From contig CAUZDW010000007.1 in NCBI GenBank assembly GCA_963578825.1, positions 28,449-92,448 on the forward strand: a DNA stretch of 64,000 bases, given 5' to 3'. The position numbers were made by a program, and so were the translations under genes. The notes under the pieces were generated by a model. That model did not search any database and had not been told where the DNA came from. It worked only from the letters and a program-made list of their open reading frames with translations. This document shows positions 2,649 to 57,016 of this stretch, piece after piece. Position 1 is the first letter of the stretch. Each line of letters begins with the position of its first letter. The stretch comes from Vicinamibacteria bacterium (lineage in GTDB: Bacteria > Acidobacteriota > Vicinamibacteria > Fen-336).

Positions 2649-3703
2649 ATGAGCGAAGCCAAATCCCATGAGTTTCCGAAGCTCCACAATGCCATTTGGT
2701 CCGGCGTGGTCGGGAAGGGGCCCGACTCCGAACCTCCCATAGAGCTCGACAAGATGCTCGATCTGACTGCGGCCGCCGAGGTGGACGGGGTCCACTTCGA
2801 CGGCGTGGACCTGATGCAGGTCGCACCCCACGTCGACATCGACGCCTCCGACGACGATCTGAAGCGTGTGGTCGAGAAGGTCCAGTCCCGAAACCTGGTC
2901 ATCGGCACGCTGGCAGCGCCGGTGTGGCCGCCCGCTGGAGGCGGGTCGGCGATGGGAAGCGCGGACGACCGCAAGCGCTTCCTGGAGCAGGTGCGAAAAG
3001 GCTGCCAGATGGCCAAGCGGTTCACCGAGCTCGGCGTGCGGCCCGACGGCGTTGTGCGGATCGACTCAGCGGTCGATCCGGACACCTGGTCGCAGGACCC
3101 TGGGGGAAACACGAAGAAGATCGCCGCCACGTTCCGGGAAGCCTGCACGATCGCGGCGGATCACGGCGAGCGGCTGGCCGCCGAGGGTGAGATCTGCTGG
3201 GGCGGCATGCACGGCTGGAAGAAGATGGTCGAGCTGCTGGAGCAGGTGGATCGAAAGGACGTCCTCGGCTTCCACGCCGACATGGCTCACACGCTTCTCT
3301 ACACCCTGGGTTACAACGCGCCGGAGGACCGCATCCTCCCGGAGGACTGGAGCTGGGACGATCCCGAAGAGCTCGATCGGGCCCTGGCGACGCTGACGAA
3401 GTCCCTGCGTCCGTGGACCAACGCTCTCGATGTGGCTCAGAACGACGCCACGGTCAAGGGCTCCGGCTCACACGACAAGACCGGTCGCCACTGTCAGCCC
3501 AACGATCCCAACGGCAAGCTCGACATCCCGAAACACTCCGGCCACTGGCTGCGCAACGAGGACGGGGAGCTGACCAAGGCGTTTCGCCACATCCGCTGGG
3601 ACGGCTGCATGTTCTCGAACGACGTGTTGACGAACGGCGAGACCTGGAACGAGATCCTGGCGGCCATGATCTCCGTGCGCGACTTCCACGGATGGAGCGA
3701 CGC

Positions 3704-3707
<4 letters not shown>
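2649..3707 (+). CDS. Sugar phosphate isomerase/epimerase (xylose-isomerase-like TIM barrel)
   Basis: [27 protein letters not shown] and WDGCMF motifs; ATGA overlap with the next gene. Confidence 0.8.
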
Positions 3708-4849
<1,142 letters not shown>

Positions 4850-26192: not shown

Positions 26193-28274
26193 GTGATCAC
26201 CCGGAACTACCCCCTCCCGCCTGTCCTTGCCGTCGTCGCACTGGCCTTCGCGGGTGGGACCGCCGCCGCCGCCGATTCCCTTCCTCGCAACGCCGAAGCG
26301 GTGGCGAGCTACGACATCCGGGTCAGGCTCGACCACGAGCACAAGAGGCTCATTGGCGAGGAGCGCCTCGTCTGGCGCAATCCCTCCTCCGACACGGTCG
26401 ACGAGCTGTGGTTTCACCTCTATCTCAACGCCTTCCGAAACTCAGAGAGCACGTTCTACCGCGAGTCGGGGGGACGGCCGAGTCGGGGCCGGATCGGGGA
26501 CGACGCCTGGGGGGGCATCGACATCACCTCGATCCGGCTGGCCGATGGAACAGACCTGGCCGGGGCGATGTCGTTCGAGCATCCCGACGACGACAATGCC
26601 GACGACCGGACCGTCCTCCGGGTCCGCCTGCCCCAGCCCGTGGCGCCCGGGATGAGCGTCACCCTCGACGTGGATTTCGAGGCGCGGATACCGGGGGCGC
26701 TGGTCCGCACCGGGTACGTCCGGGACTACTTCCTCGTGGGTCAGTGGTTTCCCAAGCTGGGCGTGTACGAGCCGGCGGGGAGGCGCGGGCGGGTGGAGGG
26801 GGGATGAAACTGCCACCAGTTTCACCCGCACTCCGAGTTCTACGCGGACTTCGGCGACTACCGGGTCGCGATCACCCTTCCGGAGCACTTCGTGGTCGGG
26901 GCGACCGGCCGGCGCGTCGAGCGCCGCGACAACGGCGACGGAACGCTCAAGCACGTGTTCGAGCAGGCCGAGGTCCACGACTTCGCGTGGACCGCCTCTC
27001 CCAAGTTCCTCCAGGTCCGGCGCACCTTCGTGGCCGACGAGGAGGTGACGCCGGAGGAGTACGCGGAGGCCGGTCGCCTTCTCGGACGGCCACCCGAGGA
27101 GATCCGCCTTCGTGACGTCGAGATCCTCCTGCTCCTCCAGCCGGCGCATCTCCCGCAGCAGGAGCGTCACATCAAGGCGGCGAAGACGGCTCTCAAGTGG
27201 TACGGCCTCTGGTACGGACGCTATCCCTACGACACCCTGACGATCGTCGATCCCGCTCCCGGCGGCGGCGGGTCCCTGGGCATGGAGTATCCGACCTTCT
27301 TCACGTCCGGAACGGTGTTCCTCTTCAACCACTGGCCCCTCGACCGGATCCTGGTGCCCGAAGACGTGATCGTCCACGAGCTCGGGCACCAGTACTGGCA
27401 GGGGATGGTGGCCACCAACGAGGCCGAGGAGGCCTGGCTGGACGAGGGCTTCACGACGTACTCGAGCGCAAAGGTGATGGTGAAGACATACGGGTCCGCC
27501 AGGATCCGGGTGCTGGGCCTCGAGCTCGGGCTGTTCGAGGGCCTGCGGGTCGTGAACCGGGCCGACCGGGTGTTCGCCCCCATCCGCGTGCCGGCCTGGG
27601 ACGTCTCCAGGGACTATCGCTTCGACATCTACACGAGGGCGACGCTCACCCTCCAGACCCTGGAGCGTCTCCTCGGCGAAGAGACGATGGCCCGGGTCAT
27701 GCGCACCTACCACGAGCGCTGGCGCTTCGCTCACCCCACGAGCGAGGACTTCTACGCGGTGGCCTCGGAGGTGTCCGGCCAGGATCTCTCCGGGTTCTTC
27801 CAGCGGACGATCGAGCAGCCAGGGTATTTGGACTATGCCGTTGCGTCGGTGACGACCACCCGGGACCTCGGGCCTCGGGGGATCCTGGAAGACGGGGCGG
27901 AAGCGACGCGGTCGTTCGTGGCGAGCCAGGACCCGGAGGACGAGGCGGACGAAGACGCCGAGGGCCCGTGGCGATCGATCGTGCGCGTCCGCCGCCTCGG
28001 CGAGGTGGTGCTGCCGGTGGAGGTGGAGCTGCAGTTCGAAGGCGGTCCCCCGGAGCACCGCGACTGGGATGGCCGCGACCGCTGGGTGAGCTACGAGGTC
28101 ACCCGACCCTATCGGCTCGTGGCCGCAGTGGTCGATCCCGAGGATCGCCTCGTCCTCGACGTGAACCGGCTCAACAACGCCCGTCGTGTCCGCCCCGACG
28201 GGCAGGCGGCCGCGTACTGGGGCGCCCGCGTGACGTTCTGGCTTAAGAGCGTGCTCGCCCTGGTGGGGCTGTGA
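26193..28274 (+). pseudogene. M1 family zinc aminopeptidase interrupted by an in-frame TGA (26805-26807)
   Basis: ORFs 26193-26807 and 26892-28274 are in the same frame; readthrough gives GG*NCHQFH.HSEFYADFG. GMEYP and HELGH...WLDEG motifs are intact. Confidence 0.8.
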
Positions 28275-50583: not shown

Positions 50584-51023
50584 CCCTACACGGCGAACCT
50601 TTCCGTCTCCCACCGGTCCTGAGCTGTCCCGGAACAGCGTGAATTCGCGAGCTCGCCACCAAGTTCGTCGCATTGACCCGCCTTGAGGAGCGTGTGGCGG
50701 CGCTCGAACGACGTACGCCTGAGCAAGGCGCGCCGCCCACTCTCCAACGGCGTACCTCCGGGCCCGTGCCATTCCCCAGGAGTGGGGAATCCCGGCAGAC
50801 GAGCTGCTTCGCTTGTGGAGAACCTGTGGAAACTCGGTCCGACCGAGTTTCCACAGCCCGGTCTGGCCCCGACAGGCTGCGCTGCGGCGTGGTCGGAGTA
50901 AGGTGCGCGTCTCGCCGGTCTCGGCGACGACCGAGGTGATAGAGTCCGCCGTGAACGCCGCACGTTCTCGCAGCGGAGCCGAGGATGTCGTCCAATAACT
51001 TGGACAATCAGGGGGGAAGACGT

Positions 51024-51899
51024 ATGAGCAACAGGCACGCCCGATCGTTCCTGCCAGCGCTCGTCGTCGGTTTGGGGCTGGCTCTTTCCGCGACCGCTCA
51101 ACAGCAGGAGCCCACGCGCTCCATCACCAAGATCACCGGAGATCTGTACAGGGCTACCCAGAACGCTCACCACACCGTGTTCCTCGTGACCTCCGAGGGA
51201 ATCATCCTGGCGGATCCCATCGGCGTGGACTTTGCGAGCTGGTTGAAGGCCGAATTGGCCGAACGTTTCGACACGCCGGTCCGATACGTGCTCTACAGCC
51301 ATTACCACGCCGATCACGCTTCTGGTGGAGCTGTCTTCCAGGACACAGCGGAGCTCATCGGTCACGAGAACATGGTTCGGAATCTGGACGCGGAAAAGGG
51401 GAGCGACACCTTCGCGAACGTGCGCGCACCGGATCGCACGTACTCGGACACCCTGACCGTCGAGCTGGGCGGCAAGACCGTGCGAATGATTCACGCGTTG
51501 CCGAGCCACAGTGATGACTCCTCAATCATCTCCTTTCCGGAGGAGCGGGCCGTGTTCGCCGTCGACTTCGTGAACGTTCGCCGTTTGCCGTACCGGAACA
51601 TGGGCGGCGGCCCCATCCAACCGTGGATCGAGGCCAACAAGGACCTGCAGAAACGCGTGGACTACGACATCATGGCGCCGGGCCACGGACCCGCCGGAAA
51701 GAAGTCCGACATCGACGCCTCCACGCGCTACCTGGAGGAGCTACTGGCAGCGGTCTCCAAGGGCATGGCCGAAGGGCAGAGCCTGGAGCGGCTCAAGGAA
51801 TCAGTCTTGATGAAGGGCTACTCGGATTGGGGCCAGTACGACGCCTGGCGCGCCGAGAACGTCGAGGCCGCGTACCAGAGCTTGGCGGGGGACCGGTGA
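51024..51899 (+). CDS. Secreted MBL-fold metallo-hydrolase
   Basis: Signal peptide; YSHYHADHASG, SHSDD, APGHG. Confidence 0.88.
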   Translation: MSNRHARSFLPALVVGLGLALSATAQQQEPTRSITKITGDLYRATQNAHHTVFLVTSEGIILADPIGVDFASWLKAELAERFDTPVRYVLYSHYHADHASGGAVFQDTAELIGHENMVRNLDAEKGSDTFANVRAPDRTYSDTLTVELGGKTVRMIHALPSHSDDSSIISFPEERAVFAVDFVNVRRLPYRNMGGGPIQPWIEANKDLQKRVDYDIMAPGHGPAGKKSDIDASTRYLEELLAAVSKGMAEGQSLERLKESVLMKGYSDWGQYDAWRAENVEAAYQSLAGDR

Positions 51900-51932
51900 T
51901 GCTCGGAAAGTGATCAGAGAGCGAGGAACTTG

Positions 51933-52712
51933 ATGGAAAGAAGAGATTTTGTGGGATCGACGGCGCTGGCGGCGGCGGGTGCCCTGGCGGGTGCGGCGTC
52001 TGCCCGGGGGCAGAGCGGGAAGGGTGCCCGGCAGTTTCTGGAGATGCGAGAGTACTCCACCATCTCCCGGGGTGCCGCCGGAGCGTTGAGGGGGCAGCTC
52101 GAGCAGGCGCTGCTCCCGGCCCTGAACCGCCTGGGACTCGAGCCCATCGGCGCCTTCAGTCCGATGTACGGGTCCGACAGCGCGACTGTCCACCTTCTCA
52201 TCCCACACAATTCCATCGATTCGGTGCTGACTCTGTCCGCGAGACTTCTGGATGACGAAAGATTCACCCAGGCAGCCGGCCCTCTCCTCCAGCCTTCGGC
52301 CGAGCAGGCGGTGTACGTCCGCGTGAAGAGCTCCCTCATGCAGGCGTTCGAAGGCATCCCCCGGATCGAGGTGCCGCCCAGGGAGCCCCGCATCTTCGAG
52401 CTGCGCCGCTACGAGAGCCACAACTTGAAGGCGGGGAAGCTGAAGGTGGAGATGTTCAACGAAGGAGAGATCGACATCTTCCGAAAGACAGGGATGACAC
52501 CGGTCTTCTTCGGCGAGACGCTGATCGGGGATCACATGCCCAACCTGCTCTACATGCTGACCTTCAAGGACATGGCGGAGCGGGACGCCGCGTGGGACAG
52601 GTTCCGAGTGCACCCGGACTGGAAGAAGATGTCGGCGATGGAGAGGTACAGGGGCACGGTGTCGAACATCAGCGACACCATCCTCCGACCGGAGAGCTTC
52701 TCACAGGTCTGA
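51933..52712 (+). CDS. Tat-exported NIPSNAP family protein
   Basis: ERRDFV Tat motif; IFELRRYESHN, EMFN.GEI.IF, PNLLYML. Confidence 0.85.
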   Translation: MERRDFVGSTALAAAGALAGAASARGQSGKGARQFLEMREYSTISRGAAGALRGQLEQALLPALNRLGLEPIGAFSPMYGSDSATVHLLIPHNSIDSVLTLSARLLDDERFTQAAGPLLQPSAEQAVYVRVKSSLMQAFEGIPRIEVPPREPRIFELRRYESHNLKAGKLKVEMFNEGEIDIFRKTGMTPVFFGETLIGDHMPNLLYMLTFKDMAERDAAWDRFRVHPDWKKMSAMERYRGTVSNISDTILRPESFSQV

Positions 52713-52818: not shown

Positions 52819-54024
52819 ATGCGCCGACTCGTCGTTCTCGTCACACTCATCCCACTCCTTCTTTTTCCAGACGCTCCTGCGCTCGCCGCAAGCGATCTGC
52901 CGCTGGCGACACCCGAGTCGGTCGGGATGTCGTCGGAGCGCCTGGAAAACGTCTGGAAATGGCTGGACCGCGTCATCGAGCGTGGGGAGGCTGCGGGTTT
53001 CGTGACGCTGGTAGCGCGACGCGGCAAGGTGGTCCATTTCGTGGCACACGGCAACATAGGCATGAAGGTCAAGAAGCCGATGCCGAAGGACGCGCTCTTC
53101 GACCTGGCATCGATGACCAAGCCGGTGACCGTGGTCGCAGCGTTGATGCTGCTGGAAGAGGGACGGTTCCTGCTGACCGACCCGATCTCGAAATACCTGC
53201 CGGAGTTCGAGGACCAGGTCGTTCGCCTCAGCGAGAGGCAGCTGGTTCCGCCGGACAGCGAGGTCACGGTGCACAACCTGTTCACTCACACGTCGGGCAT
53301 CGGTGCGAACTGGTCGCGGGCGGAGGTCTATGAGTTCTCGACTCTCGAGGAGTACATCGAGGCGTTGGCCGAGATCCCTCTGAGCCACCAGCCCGGTTCG
53401 ACCTGGTTCTACGGATACTCGCACGATGTCCTGGGCTATCTGGTCCAGACCGTGACCGGGCAGCCGCTGGCCGAGTTCATCCAGCAGCGCATCCTCGACC
53501 CCCTGGGGATGGAGGACACGCACTACTGGCCGCCGTCTTCGAAGGACGATCGGCGGGCGGTGCTGGTCGTGGAAGGCAGGGACGACCTGGACTCCACGTC
53601 GCGACGTCCGCTGAAGGCCGCGGAAGAGGCGACACTCACGAGAGGAGCGAGCGGGCTCTACTCGACGGCTGCGGACTACTGGCGTTTCTGCCAGATGCTG
53701 CTGAACGGCGGAGAGCTCGACGGCGAGCGGTTGCTGGGCCCGCGCACCGTCGCGCGGATCAGTCAGGAGCACATTCCTGCAGAGCTCTTCGACCGCCCCG
53801 GAACAACGTTCGGGCTCGGCCATGCTGTGACCGTCGACCCCGCGGAGCAGGGCTTCTACTGGTCCGAGGGCAGCTACTACTGGGGCGGATCGCAGGGGAC
53901 CGTGTTCTGGGTGGATCCGAAGGAGCAACTGACCGGCGTTCTGATGGTCCAACGCAGCCGCATGGATCGCATCAACCAGCGCCAGGTGTTCGCAGAGATC
54001 GTCTACGCGGCGATCGTGGACTAG
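52819..54024 (+). CDS. Serine hydrolase (beta-lactamase/class C family)
   Basis: LASMTK SxxK motif, LFTHTSG, WFYG.S.D, WGGSQGT.FWVDP. Confidence 0.92.
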   Translation: MRRLVVLVTLIPLLLFPDAPALAASDLPLATPESVGMSSERLENVWKWLDRVIERGEAAGFVTLVARRGKVVHFVAHGNIGMKVKKPMPKDALFDLASMTKPVTVVAALMLLEEGRFLLTDPISKYLPEFEDQVVRLSERQLVPPDSEVTVHNLFTHTSGIGANWSRAEVYEFSTLEEYIEALAEIPLSHQPGSTWFYGYSHDVLGYLVQTVTGQPLAEFIQQRILDPLGMEDTHYWPPSSKDDRRAVLVVEGRDDLDSTSRRPLKAAEEATLTRGASGLYSTAADYWRFCQMLLNGGELDGERLLGPRTVARISQEHIPAELFDRPGTTFGLGHAVTVDPAEQGFYWSEGSYYWGGSQGTVFWVDPKEQLTGVLMVQRSRMDRINQRQVFAEIVYAAIVD

Positions 54025-54085
54025 GGTAAGCGCGGTGTTGTCCATTTGATCGTGTAGCATGGGGAGGGGTCAGGAGGAGGAGCCA

Positions 54086-54619
54086 GTGAGAGCCACCAGG
54101 ATGTGCTCGCTACTTGCCGTGGTCGCCATGGCGACCACGGCCTGCGCCGGCCCGCCGGAAGAGTCGGCGAATGACGCCGGCCCCGCCAACGCCCCGAGCC
54201 AGGCAGGTGCCACCGCGGAGGCCGCCGAGCCCGGGCAACGCGCCCAACCCGCTCAGCCCAAGCAGGCCGCACAGCCCGAGCGCCGCCCGGAGCCGAAAGC
54301 GCCCCGCGCCGAGGGCGACGAGCTGGCCGAGCTGCTCGCCAGCGAAGACTACCTCCTCCTGGACGTCCGCCGTCCCGAGGAGCTCGAGGAGAGAGGAACC
54401 GTCGAGGGTTACCTCAACATCCCGATCGAGGAGCTGGCCGATCGGCTGGATGAGGTGCCGCGAGACCGTCCCGTACTCACGGCTTGAAACGGCGGTGGCC
54501 GAGCCGCGCGTGCCGCGGCTTTACTCGAAGAGAACGGTTTCGAAGTGGTGGCCTTTTGCGGCTTGCGAGCCTACGAGGGCGACAAGATCCACCCGAAAGC
54601 GGACGGCGGAAAGCCGTAG
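54086..54619 (+). CDS. Rhodanese-domain lipoprotein with probable selenocysteine (UGA at 54485-54487)
   Basis: GTG start after AGGAGG; lipobox-like ATTAC; LLDVRRPEE...NIP..EL...L.EVPRDRPVLTA-U-NGGGRAARAAALLEENGF, reading through in frame to TAG 54617-54619. Confidence 0.85.
54502..54520 (+). promoter_or_regulatory. Putative bacterial SECIS element
   Basis: Perfect 7-bp stem AGCCGCG/CGCGGCT with a CGTGC loop; the loop begins 21 nt after the UGA and has G at position 2. Confidence 0.65.
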
Positions 54620-54756
54620 CGTCCGACGAGTCAGCGTCGGCACTCGGTTCCGGCCAGGCGGCCGCCGATCAGGCCGCGAGTTCCTTGTACGCGACCGCGA
54701 GCATGGTGGCGGCGCCAGTCAATCTCCGCCGAGGGCGGACTGTTCGAGGCAATCAA

Positions 54757-54875
54757 TGCGGATGCTCCTTATCGCCCTCTCCGTGATCGTTTCTCATATG
54801 GCCTGGCATTGGATGGGGGACCGTATTGCGGTGCTCAGGGAATACCCGGTTCGATGGACCGAGGCCTCGAAATGA
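54757..54875 (+). pseudogene. Possible HupE/UreJ-family C-terminal remnant
   Basis: LIALSVIVSHMAWHWMGDR resembles the C-terminal helix of these membrane proteins; the rest of the gene is absent. Confidence 0.4.
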
Positions 54876-57016
54876 GTTTCCTGCACACCTGGGTATTGGC
54901 AGCAGCCATCGCAGCGCCGCAACCGACGACCACTCCTGAAGCCCCGGCCCACGCGGTCACGGAAGAGATTCGCCTCGACGGCGTACTGGACGAGGCCGTC
55001 TGGGCCACCGTTCCGACCATCGGGCGTCTCCTCCAGCAGGAGCCCATCCCCGAGTCCGCGCCCACGATGGAGACAGAGGTTCGCGTTGTGTTCGATCGGG
55101 ACCACCTCTATTTCGGCATCCTGTGTCGGGACGACGATCCCTCGTCCATCGTGGCGAATCAGCTCTCCCGGGACTCGCAGCTCAGGACCGACGACAACAT
55201 CGCGATCGTCCTCGACCCGTTCCTCGATCGCCGCAACGGCTTCTTCTTCGAAACGAATGCGGTCGGCTCCCGAACCGACGGTCAGGTGGCGAACAACGCC
55301 GAACGACGAACTCGCGAATGGGACGGCATCTGGAATGCCGCGGCTCGCGTCACCGACGAAGGCTGGGTGGCCGAGATCGAGATTCCGTTCAAGACCCTCC
55401 GGTTCAAGCCTGGTGAGACGACCTGGGGCCTCAACGTGGAGCGCACGGTCGTTCGGTTGAACGAAGTGAATCGGTGGGCCTCGCCACGGCGGGATGTCTG
55501 GCTCACCAACTTCGCAATGGCGGGCCAGCTGACAGATCTCGAGGGCATCCAGCAGGGTCGGGGCCTGGACATTCGCCCCTATGCGTCGACGAGCCGGGCC
55601 GACGGCGACGGCGATTTCGACGTCGGCCTGGACGTCTTCAAGAACATCACCCCCAGCCTGAACGCGTCCGTCACCGTCAACACGGACTTCGCGGAGACGG
55701 AGGTGGACGCCCGCCGGGTGAACCTGACCCGATTCCCCCTCTTCTTTCCGGAGAAGAGGACCTTCTTCCTGGAGGGGGCGGGCATCTTCGAGATCGCCGG
55801 CCTGACCGCGAATCGGCGGGGGGGCACCCTTCTTCCCTTCTTCAGTCGCCGGATCGGTCTCCTGGAAGGACAGGAGGTTCCGATCATTGCCGGTGCCAAG
55901 ATGGTGGGCCGGGAGAAGGGATTCAACATCGGCGTCCTCGACGTGGTCACCAACGACGCGGAGATCCCGAACTTTGGACACGTCGACAAGCAGAACCTGC
56001 TGGTGGCCCGGGTGAGCCGCAACCTGTTCACCCAGTCCTGGATCGGGGGGATCCTGACCCACGGGAACCCGGAGGGGACCGGCCAGAACACGTTGTTCGG
56101 CTTGGACGCGAAGTTCGCCACGTCGAAGTTCCGAGACGACAAGAACCTCAGCCTGTCCCTCTACTACCTTGGAACGAAAGACGAGACCCTCGGCGAAATG
56201 GACACGGCCTACGGGTTCAAGCTCGAGTATCCCAACGACCTGTGGGACGCGAACGTGAGCTTCACCACCATTGGAGAGGACTTCAACGCGGCCCTGGGCT
56301 TCGTACCGCGAAAGGGAATTCGCATCTTCCGACCCTTCGTCTCGTTTCGGCCTCGGGCGCGGCAGATCGGAATCCGCCAATTCAACTTCCAGTTCTTTCC
56401 CACGCTGGTCTACGCCCTCGACGGGCGGTTGCTCGACTACCGCGTCCAGACGGCACCCCTGAACCTGGAGACCGAGTCCCAGGAGCGGATCGAGTTCAAC
56501 GTGATTCCAGAGCAACAGACCCTGGATGAGCCTTTCGAGATTCACGACGGGGCAGTGATACCCGCTGGCCGGTACCAATGGACCCGATATCGTGCCGAGG
56601 TGCAGACGGCGGAGTACCGTCCCTGGGCGGTTGAGCTCTCCTACCGGTGGGGCGGCTTCTTCACCGGGAGCCGGCGGGAGATCCAGCTGGCTGTCATCCT
56701 GAAGCTGAGCCGTCATCTCCACCTGGAGTTCCGCAGCGAACGCAACGACGTGGAGCTGCCCGAGGGGACGTTCGACACACAGGTCTTCGAGCTCGCAGCG
56801 AACACCAGCTTCACACCCAACCTCTCCTGGGCCAACCTGGTGCAGTTCGACAACGACTCCAACATCCTCGGGTTCCAGAGCCGCTTCCGCTGGATCCTGA
56901 GGCCGGGGAACGACTTCTTCGTCGTGGTCAACAGGGGTTGGGAGAGGCTGGGCGATCGGTTCCAGCCCGCGTCCGATAACTTCACCCTGAAGTTTCAGTA
57001 CACGTTCCGTCTCTAA
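54872..57016 (+). CDS. DUF5916 / CBM9-like sugar-binding outer-membrane protein
   Basis: IRLDGVLDE..W, WVAEIEIPFKTLRF, NTDFAETEVD...NLTRFPLFFPEKRTFFLEG, terminal QYTFRL. Confidence 0.85.
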   Translation: MSFLHTWVLAAAIAAPQPTTTPEAPAHAVTEEIRLDGVLDEAVWATVPTIGRLLQQEPIPESAPTMETEVRVVFDRDHLYFGILCRDDDPSSIVANQLSRDSQLRTDDNIAIVLDPFLDRRNGFFFETNAVGSRTDGQVANNAERRTREWDGIWNAAARVTDEGWVAEIEIPFKTLRFKPGETTWGLNVERTVVRLNEVNRWASPRRDVWLTNFAMAGQLTDLEGIQQGRGLDIRPYASTSRADGDGDFDVGLDVFKNITPSLNASVTVNTDFAETEVDARRVNLTRFPLFFPEKRTFFLEGAGIFEIAGLTANRRGGTLLPFFSRRIGLLEGQEVPIIAGAKMVGREKGFNIGVLDVVTNDAEIPNFGHVDKQNLLVARVSRNLFTQSWIGGILTHGNPEGTGQNTLFGLDAKFATSKFRDDKNLSLSLYYLGTKDETLGEMDTAYGFKLEYPNDLWDANVSFTTIGEDFNAALGFVPRKGIRIFRPFVSFRPRARQIGIRQFNFQFFPTLVYALDGRLLDYRVQTAPLNLETESQERIEFNVIPEQQTLDEPFEIHDGAVIPAGRYQWTRYRAEVQTAEYRPWAVELSYRWGGFFTGSRREIQLAVILKLSRHLHLEFRSERNDVELPEGTFDTQVFELAANTSFTPNLSWANLVQFDNDSNILGFQSRFRWILRPGNDFFVVVNRGWERLGDRFQPASDNFTLKFQYTFRL

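Follow-up and report, generated by a model that had tools for sequence, protein, structure and literature searches.

The 64,000-nucleotide stretch of DNA analysed here (the window), taken from the forward strand of contig CAUZDW010000007.1 of a Vicinamibacteria bacterium (Acidobacteriota; assembly GCA_963578825.1), raises the question of whether a rhodanese gene that starts at 54086 ends at the in-frame TGA at 54485-54487, or whether it is translated through this codon with selenocysteine (Sec, U) as its catalytic residue. An earlier note, made from the sequence alone, had proposed the latter: an exported rhodanese lipoprotein with UGA in place of the catalytic cysteine codon, followed by a hairpin resembling a bacterial selenocysteine insertion sequence (SECIS). 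We compared the locus with its relatives, with known rhodanese structures and with contigs from seawater metagenomes, and the results indicate that the gene very likely encodes a translated selenocysteine rhodanese. The parts of the reading frame that bear on this conclusion are the following.

54086..54619, + strand: predicted complete selenoprotein coding sequence, 177 codons including the UGA (Sec134), from a GTG start to TAG, as obtained by translation
54305..54595, + strand: single rhodanese domain, split in database annotation by the UGA, identified by PF00581, PDB sequence matches, AlphaFold and Foldseek
54485..54487, + strand: probable selenocysteine codon (UGA, U134), occupying the catalytic place in the active-site loop U-N-G-G-G-R
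54557..54559, + strand: conserved second cysteine, C158, at +24 from Sec within FCGL; a candidate for a partner or resolving thiol
54617..54619, + strand: predicted true stop, TAG; homologues finish within a few codons of each other and conservation ends there

A UGA codon at the catalytic position of a rhodanese

The frame opened by GTG 54086 gives a 133-codon open reading frame that ends in ...VPRDRPVLTA and is closed by the TGA at 54485-54487. Beyond this codon the same frame runs on for 43 codons, NGGGRAARAAALLEENGFEVVAFCGLRAYEGDKIHPKADGGKP, to the TAG at 54617-54619. When a cysteine was put in place of the stop, the read-through product matched the Pfam family Rhodanese (PF00581) over residues 78-155 with an E value of 8.5e-12, and the match crossed the TGA at residue 134. 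PDB sequence matches of the same product were rhodanese domains, as were the Foldseek matches obtained with the structural model of a close homologue carrying cysteine at this position (P0001). Both the interruption at the rhodanese active-site loop and the continuation for 43 rhodanese-like codons, as read in the earlier note, were thus borne out. The window has a GC content of 66%, and TGA is the normal stop of 31 of its 46 crude gene calls, which argues for a genetic code in which TGA has not been reassigned. Very probably, 54086-54619 is one gene that encodes a 177-residue precursor rather than a 133-residue protein.

A protein search for homologues, of which 120 clusters at 90% identity were listed, provided both called products that stop at the UGA and full-length proteins. 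About 76 of the listed clusters ended exactly at ...LT[A/L/I/T], one residue short of the catalytic position, and about ten full-length homologues with cysteine at the position of the TGA were present among the matches listed. These included P0001, 81% identical to the window protein (ILTGCNGGNRAARAA), and the group P0004-P0010, with ILTACNGGGRAARA at the catalytic position. In an alignment of 26 sequences the TGA column held cysteine in all 25 others, and the TGA also aligned with the catalytic cysteine of the solved rhodanese domains 6pfz, 3nta and 3icr, so that the pairing of cysteine with TGA, on which the earlier proposal turned, was observed. One metagenomic protein of 134 residues (P0003) reads ...DRPILVLGASGDARAARAA..., in which the catalytic position holds neither cysteine nor a stop and one residue is added; this variant may be the result of a frameshift or be non-catalytic.

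We then compared DNA from 14 distinct loci of the Sec form (the window, L001, L002, L021-L024, L044, L045, L046, and two copies each in L049 and L004), with protein identities to the window down to about 50%. The catalytic codon was TGA in all 14. Called products do end at this codon, a circumstance that could have spoken against the proposal, but in every one of these loci the DNA continued in frame with a conserved protein, xGG(G/P)RAARAAxLLxxxG(F/Y)xVxxF(C/S)GLxxYxGE..., to stops lying within a few codons of each other. Downstream of the TGA amino acids were kept while synonymous sites varied: the leucine at +13 was encoded by six different codons and the glycines at +17 and +25 by four each. 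Conserved residues with varying synonymous sites after the UGA are the signature of a translated region. These comparisons indicate that the UGA at 54485-54487 is translated, and that it occupies the catalytic-cysteine position of a single rhodanese domain.

The Sec form can be present more than once in a genome. One 5.87-Mb genome carried two dispersed paralogues, and tandem pairs were found in L049 (3001-3800) and on the Vicinamibacteria chromosome OZ244068.1 (L004, about 3000-3720). The first gene of these pairs has no signal peptide, a loop of U-MVGPR and serine in place of the second cysteine (FSGL); the second, a predicted lipoprotein (LGWGC-GGG), has the loop U-QGGGR and retains FCGL. 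Such an arrangement suggests a cytoplasmic and an exported partner. At five other sampled related loci (L051, L052, L053, L055 and L058) the codon was TGC. L051 and L055 look like recent Sec-to-Cys conversions because they stand beside Sec-form sisters (P0060 in the first case, P0087 and P0088 in the second).

The truncation has consequences for annotation. Sec-form records such as MCH7824078.1, MDE2660301.1, MDE2711772.1, MXX87540.1 and MYF76375.1 are truncated, and names given to such records include 'CoA-disulfide reductase, partial' (81 amino acids) and 'rhodanese-like domain-containing protein' (73 amino acids). These truncated NCBI records are artefacts of an unrecognised Sec codon. The window gene and at least 70 related clusters stand in databases as fragments of 70-160 residues, some of them named 'hypothetical protein'; once the UGA is read as Sec, the enzyme is complete again and the selenoprotein inventory of marine Acidobacteriota gains a member.

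The hairpin downstream of the UGA

The element that would direct recoding lies within the coding sequence, shortly after the UGA.

54501..54521, + strand: predicted bacterial SECIS hairpin, stem 54501-54508 with 54514-54521, apical loop CGUGC at 54509-54513

The core of this hairpin, AGCCGCG-CGUGC-CGCGGCU at 54502-54520, forms seven perfect pairs, to which a G-U at 54501/54521 adds an eighth. The five-nucleotide loop starts 21 nucleotides past the UGA and has G at its second position, with G-U at positions 2-3, in agreement with the description in the earlier note; the folding energy was -11.5 to -12.8 kcal/mol. The bacterial SECIS model, as set out in a 2026 review (PMC13188914), comprises a loop of 3-9 nucleotides, an upper stem of 4-16 base pairs, G within the first two nucleotides of the loop, usually as G[G|U], a distance of 16-37 nucleotides from UGA to loop, and a minimum free energy of at most -7.5 kcal/mol. 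The window hairpin agrees with the model in every one of these respects.

Considered alone, the hairpin is weak evidence, because a hairpin of matching geometry followed 18 of the 1420 TGA trinucleotides in the window (1.3%) and because the fold of the whole region was unremarkable for its GC content (z = -0.14); the comparative data carry the case. RNAalifold applied to the 14 Sec forms returned the window hairpin as the sole consensus structure. The only loop variant among them was CGGGC, which is still G[G|U], in L044; at this locus, with a GC content of 48.9%, the hairpin was kept with a single loop base changed. In the five codons that form the hairpin (+6 to +10, GCC GCG CGT GCC GCG), the fraction of Sec-form pairs using the same codon was 1, 1, 0.86, 1 and 1. 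For 16 control columns, in which the amino acid was invariant and at least fourfold-degenerate, this fraction averaged 0.44 (range 0.14-0.86; Mann-Whitney p = 6e-4 against +6 to +10). The arginine codon was CGT in 13 of the 14 Sec forms, and CGT is a rare arginine codon in GC-rich genomes. The stem was altered in none of the 14 Sec forms compared with three of the five Cys forms (Fisher p = 0.010), where the changes were GCG to GCC in L051, GCC to GCT together with flank changes in L055, and GCG to TTG, with a change of the residue as well, in L058. On this comparative evidence the 8-bp hairpin is selected as RNA only where the codon is UGA. The SECIS-like nature that the earlier note had ascribed to it is therefore supported both by its fit to the published model and by a constraint at the RNA level that is confined to Sec forms. 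The several Sec-to-Cys switches with decaying hairpins amount to a small natural experiment on SECIS constraint, and the near-invariant UGA-SECIS module offers a handy probe for further members of the family.

Two further observations concern this region. In seawater runs X1-X4, many otherwise unlike contigs matched the window only at about 54476-54519, a segment of about 44 nucleotides that holds the UGA and the hairpin, with an identity of at least 90%; depth over this segment reached about 200, compared with 5-14 on the flanks in the three 2019 runs, and some of the flanks were AT-richer. This pile-up points to a UGA-SECIS core common to a wider set of divergent seawater rhodanese genes. 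A further helix, whose loop would contain the UGA (54478-54484 with 54491-54497) and which is perfect in L001 (CACCGCC-UGAAAC-GGCGGUG), was considered and rejected: it was 78.6% paired over the 14 sequences, showed no compensatory change and lay outside the RNAalifold consensus.

Other explanations of the in-frame TGA have to be set against a translated selenocysteine rhodanese. The TGA might stem from an error in sequencing or assembly, or from a TGC or TGT codon mutated to nonsense in one strain, and polymorphic nonsense codons do occur in the same organism, as in an M1 peptidase gene of the window whose TGA at 26805-26807 is TGG in run X4. However, contigs from four independent seawater metagenome runs that span 54380-54640 carried variants at 54481 and 54484 and no alternative base at 54485-54487; neither TGC nor TGT, which the earlier note had named as the codons to look for in reads, was found at this position in those contigs. 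Moreover, TGA is present in every Sec-form relative, from differing samples and studies. The TGA in the Sec relatives and in the metagenome contigs refutes this explanation, and we assign it a negligible probability. Termination at the UGA, which would leave a pseudogene or a 133-residue protein with the hairpin as a by-product of Ala-Ala-Arg-Ala-Ala coding in a GC-rich genome, has in its favour the truncated products of the databases, the self-complementarity of the GCC and GCG alanine codons, the two Cys forms that carry the same nucleotides and the unremarkable fold of the whole region. It is hard to reconcile with the retention of TGA and of the downstream frame in 14 loci to about 50% identity with synonymous variation, with a hairpin that is kept at 49% GC and decays in Cys forms, with the rare CGT fixed in nearly all Sec forms, or with a truncated product that would be left without the catalytic loop and without the helix and final modelled strand that come after it. 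Termination is thus very improbable, and the comparative data refute it in practice. A third explanation accepts that the UGA is translated and holds that the residue is not Sec: a suppressor tRNA (a tRNA-Sec-like SelC* tRNA-Cys, or an allo-tRNA of a type reported from Acidobacteria) would insert cysteine or another residue, with or without SelB and the hairpin. Such tRNAs exist, since opal suppressors have been proposed in deltaproteobacteria and nonsense suppressors in Acidobacteria (PMC5389517), and these unusual acidobacterial tRNAs are the reason why a small probability is kept for a residue other than Sec. Against it, plain TGC forms that have lost the hairpin exist in the family, so that insertion of cysteine needs no recoding; the position is that of the nucleophilic catalytic cysteine, a classical site of Sec/Cys exchange; TGA is still the main stop codon; and the hairpin fits the SelB-type SECIS model. 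We consider this explanation unlikely.

Several results weigh against a selenocysteine rhodanese with the proposed activity, or limit the case for it. The comparative data show translation and constraint on the hairpin, not the identity of the inserted residue. No match to E. coli SelA, SelB or SelD was obtained by tblastn in the 64-kb window or in the examined relative loci, and Rfam and ARAGORN found only tRNA-Phe and tRNA-Leu in the window, with no tRNA-Sec; these negative results do not extend to the rest of the genome. In favour of Sec, Acidobacteria are recorded as selenoprotein users (PMC1794560). No conserved gene neighbourhood, and no clue to a substrate, emerged among the relatives, whose neighbouring genes differ (unrelated hydrolases, peptidases and transporters). 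Covariation in the hairpin was minimal: five of the eight pairs never varied, shuffle controls were not exceeded, and one compensatory change was seen, from A-U to C-G at the basal stem pair in one lineage. Classical covariation is nearly absent because the hairpin hardly varies at all, and the case rests on synonymous-site invariance instead. Finally, two Cys forms, L052 (P0004) and L053 (P0010), with about 46-55% protein identity to the window, retain the exact 21-nucleotide hairpin sequence; their relative L058 (P0006) has a broken hairpin, and the two intact ones may be fossil SECIS elements.

Predicted export, fold and proposed activity

The 5′ part of the gene carries the following features.

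54072..54082, + strand: Shine-Dalgarno-like purine run AGGAGGAGGAG, 3-8 nucleotides upstream of the GTG, read directly
54086..54145, + strand: predicted signal peptide ending in a lipobox, (M)RATRM-CSLLAVVAMA-TTA-C; Cys20, encoded at 54143-54145, is the predicted lipidated mature N-terminus
54146..54304, + strand: Pro/Ala/Glu/Gln-rich low-complexity linker of about 53 residues, presumed to be a flexible tether, variable among homologues

The start at GTG 54086 was also chosen by gene callers for the 133-residue truncated product (P0121, P0122), and the N-termini of homologues read M-R/K-A-T/I-K at this position. The N-terminus of the window protein combines a charged n-region, a hydrophobic h-region and a lipobox cysteine within about 35 residues, and it fits a PROSITE-type lipobox pattern that was found in 73 of 110 family N-termini. 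Clear lipoboxes of relatives (VAVAC, AVGC and GAGC) have their cysteine in the column of Cys20. Speaking against a lipid anchor, the residue at -3 of the lipobox is an atypical threonine, and the closest relatives (P0011, P0013 and P0016) have glycine where the lipobox cysteine stands and look like signal peptidase I substrates; in the group P0005-P0008 the lipobox position reads ...AWA-Q. Judged by their N-termini, the members of the family appear to be mostly exported, the window protein is probably a lipoprotein, and the lipoprotein form seems to be the norm in its subfamily. The linker varies in length and sequence among homologues, and the equivalent region of P0001 was modelled with a low predicted local distance difference test (pLDDT) score. 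The ribosome binding site, the lipobox-like ATTA-C signal and the Pro/Ala/Glu-rich linker of the earlier note were accordingly all found in place. Its remark that such a location is uncommon for selenocysteine rhodaneses was overstated, given that the lipoprotein form appears normal here and that exported selenoproteins have already been described.

The fold was examined on the AlphaFold model of P0001, in which residues 1-44 were of low confidence and residues 45-140 had pLDDT values above 89. The catalytic cysteine closes the strand 101-105 in this model, and a helix and the last modelled strand come after it. A product truncated at the UGA would miss the catalytic loop, the helix and the last modelled strand, and the model suggests that it could not fold. 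The second cysteine of P0001, residue 129, is found close to where that last strand (125-130) ends. The rhodanese fold leads us to place the ends of these strands next to each other, which makes a Se-S interaction between U134 and C158 plausible; C158 is probably near enough to serve as a resolving or partner thiol. In the alignment C158 stands in for the first glycine of the canonical rhodanese GG motif. All close Cys forms have it, as do 12 of the 14 Sec forms; the two that lack it are the signal-less paralogues.

The active-site loop U-N-G-G-G-R has the six-residue form C-x-x-G-x-R. Judged by the loop lengths of rhodaneses and Cdc25, this form is typical of sulfurtransferase-type rhodaneses. 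The best matches in sequence and structure were CoADR-RHD (3icr), the NADH-dependent persulfide reductase (3nta, 3ntd, 6pfz) and persulfide dioxygenase-rhodanese fusions (5ve3-5). More distant matches were the exported single-domain proteins PspE, by sequence, and Sud, by both sequence and structure.

By analogy with the established bacterial pathway, SelB loaded with Sec-tRNA(Sec) would bind the hairpin on the translating mRNA and deliver selenocysteine to the UGA, yielding the loop U-N-G-G-G-R. The signal peptide and its lipobox (A-T-T-A-C) would route the unfolded precursor through the general secretory translocon, after which Cys20 would be lipidated and the rhodanese domain held outside the cytoplasmic membrane by about 50 disordered, Pro/Ala/Glu-rich residues serving as a tether. 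There, as the fold and the nearest structures suggest, the selenolate may take sulfane sulfur from a persulfide, a polysulfide or a thiosulfate-derived donor as a Se-S adduct and hand it to an acceptor. Cysteine pairing, the conserved frame, the fit to the SECIS model and the conservation of the lipobox all lend support to the earlier proposal of an exported, membrane-anchored selenocysteine sulfurtransferase. An enzyme tethered in this manner would make the cell envelope a site of sulfur or persulfide chemistry that depends on selenium.

Known systems and genomic surroundings

Rhodanese-like selenoproteins are a known family, as the earlier note had assumed; the first predictions date from 2004-2005 and drew in part on data from the Sargasso Sea (PMC1088965). 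Five forms are distinguished in PMC13188914, two of which (forms 2 and 4) carry UxxG; the type is that of the 'rhodanese-related sulfurtransferase' COG0607/PspE. The window protein resembles these UxxG forms, as described there, in its single PF00581 domain, in Sec for the catalytic cysteine, in the sequence U-N-G-G, in a SECIS directly downstream and in its occurrence in marine metagenomes; the comparison with the exemplars MBM9537886.1 and MCY3690685.1 is one of described features, not of exemplar sequences, and the accessions recovered for relatives, MCH7824078.1 and MDE2660301.1 among them, are other than these two. The accessible part of the review does not mention a lipoprotein signal, a long tether, a cysteine at +24 or a distribution in Acidobacteriota and Vicinamibacteria for the UxxG forms. 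Form 3, CxU (NF041203, rhodanese_LYCAU), is a different matter: the window protein scored 22.8 bits against a cut-off of 115, and T-A precedes its U, so that it has no CxU.

Like the SECIS of E. coli fdhF, the hairpin of the window follows its UGA closely on the 3′ side, within the coding sequence, has a small apical loop with G-U and is spaced within the range of 16-37 nucleotides. Unlike it, the window hairpin has an unrelated sequence, a stem without a bulged U and a loop about one codon further from the UGA. At the protein level, E. coli PspE, which is periplasmic, and Sud, the Wolinella polysulfide-sulfur transferase (1qxn), are likewise exported single rhodaneses with a loop of the C-x-x-G-x-R type. 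With 29.9 bits for NF007627 (cut-off 102) and 25.4 bits for TIGR02981 (cut-off 126.3), the window protein is not orthologous to PspE, and it differs from these two soluble periplasmic proteins by its Sec, its predicted lipid anchor and tether and its extra conserved cysteine. The U of the window protein aligns with the persulfide-carrying cysteine of CoADR-RHD (3icr), of the NADH persulfide reductase (3nta/3ntd) and of 5ve3-5. The rhodaneses of those flavoenzymes are C-terminal domains of cytoplasmic multidomain enzymes, whereas that of the window stands alone and is predicted to be exported.

Precedents for exported selenoproteins come from proteins of other folds. The family NF041057, 'Rcas_1661 family thioredoxin-like (seleno)lipoprotein', is by its name a precedent for selenoprotein lipoproteins; its match to the window protein covered only the low-complexity N-terminus (E 0.018) and is no sign of homology. 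SaoC and SaoX are listed as selenoprotein families in PMC13188914; SaoX of the SAO system is described as a lipoprotein, and most SaoC signal peptides look to be of the lipoprotein type. These two offer a precedent for exported or lipoprotein selenoproteins, with folds that differ from that of the window rhodanese.

Rhodanese selenoproteins with UxxG and selenoprotein lipoproteins have therefore both been described already, and the window gene adds a member to a known kind without overturning current understanding. The details that are absent from the literature descriptions, to the extent that these were accessible, are the lipid anchor, the tether, the spacing U-x24-C, the tandem of signal-less and exported genes and the near-invariant SECIS. 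It is conceivable, although we would put it at somewhat below an even chance, that these details define a distinct subfamily of lipid-anchored, extracytoplasmic selenocysteine rhodaneses with U-x24-C, common in marine and soil Acidobacteriota (Vicinamibacteria), sometimes in tandem with a signal-less paralogue and sharing the UGA-SECIS core of about 44 nucleotides. If so, the subfamily would mark a persulfide or polysulfide activity dependent on selenium, or one in selenium trafficking, located at the cell envelope and possibly operating in oxic seawater, which current annotation overlooks altogether.

Around the gene, a scan of 53900-54900 for terminators and promoters found none. Directly downstream lies a gene for a DUF5916/CBM9 protein (54809-57016, + strand), and a DUF5916 gene is also found in a marine (Tara) locus (L042, 1-1565), about 1.4 kb upstream of a Sec-rhodanese; this proximity could be weak synteny or coincidence. 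On the other side, a NIPSNAP-domain protein (51930-52712, + strand) carries a twin-arginine-like sequence, MMERRDFVGSTALAAAGALAGAASA, at its N-terminus. A gene of the metallo-beta-lactamase fold (50985-51899) precedes it in the same frame, with a TGA and 30 nucleotides between them. Other pairs of open reading frames bridged by TGA in the window were mostly adjacent genes or alternative frames and were rejected as candidates for recoding. The one real case is an M1-family metallopeptidase gene (26193-28274, + strand; PF01433 on 26892-28274), which appears to be split by the in-frame TGA at 26805-26807: ...RVEGG*NCHQFHPHSEFYADFG... This codon was TGA in seawater runs X1-X3 and TGG (Trp) in X4, and it looks like a polymorphic nonsense codon or pseudogenisation, or like tolerated read-through, and not like a Sec site. 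The TGA of the M1 peptidase thus varied between runs, whereas that of the rhodanese did not.

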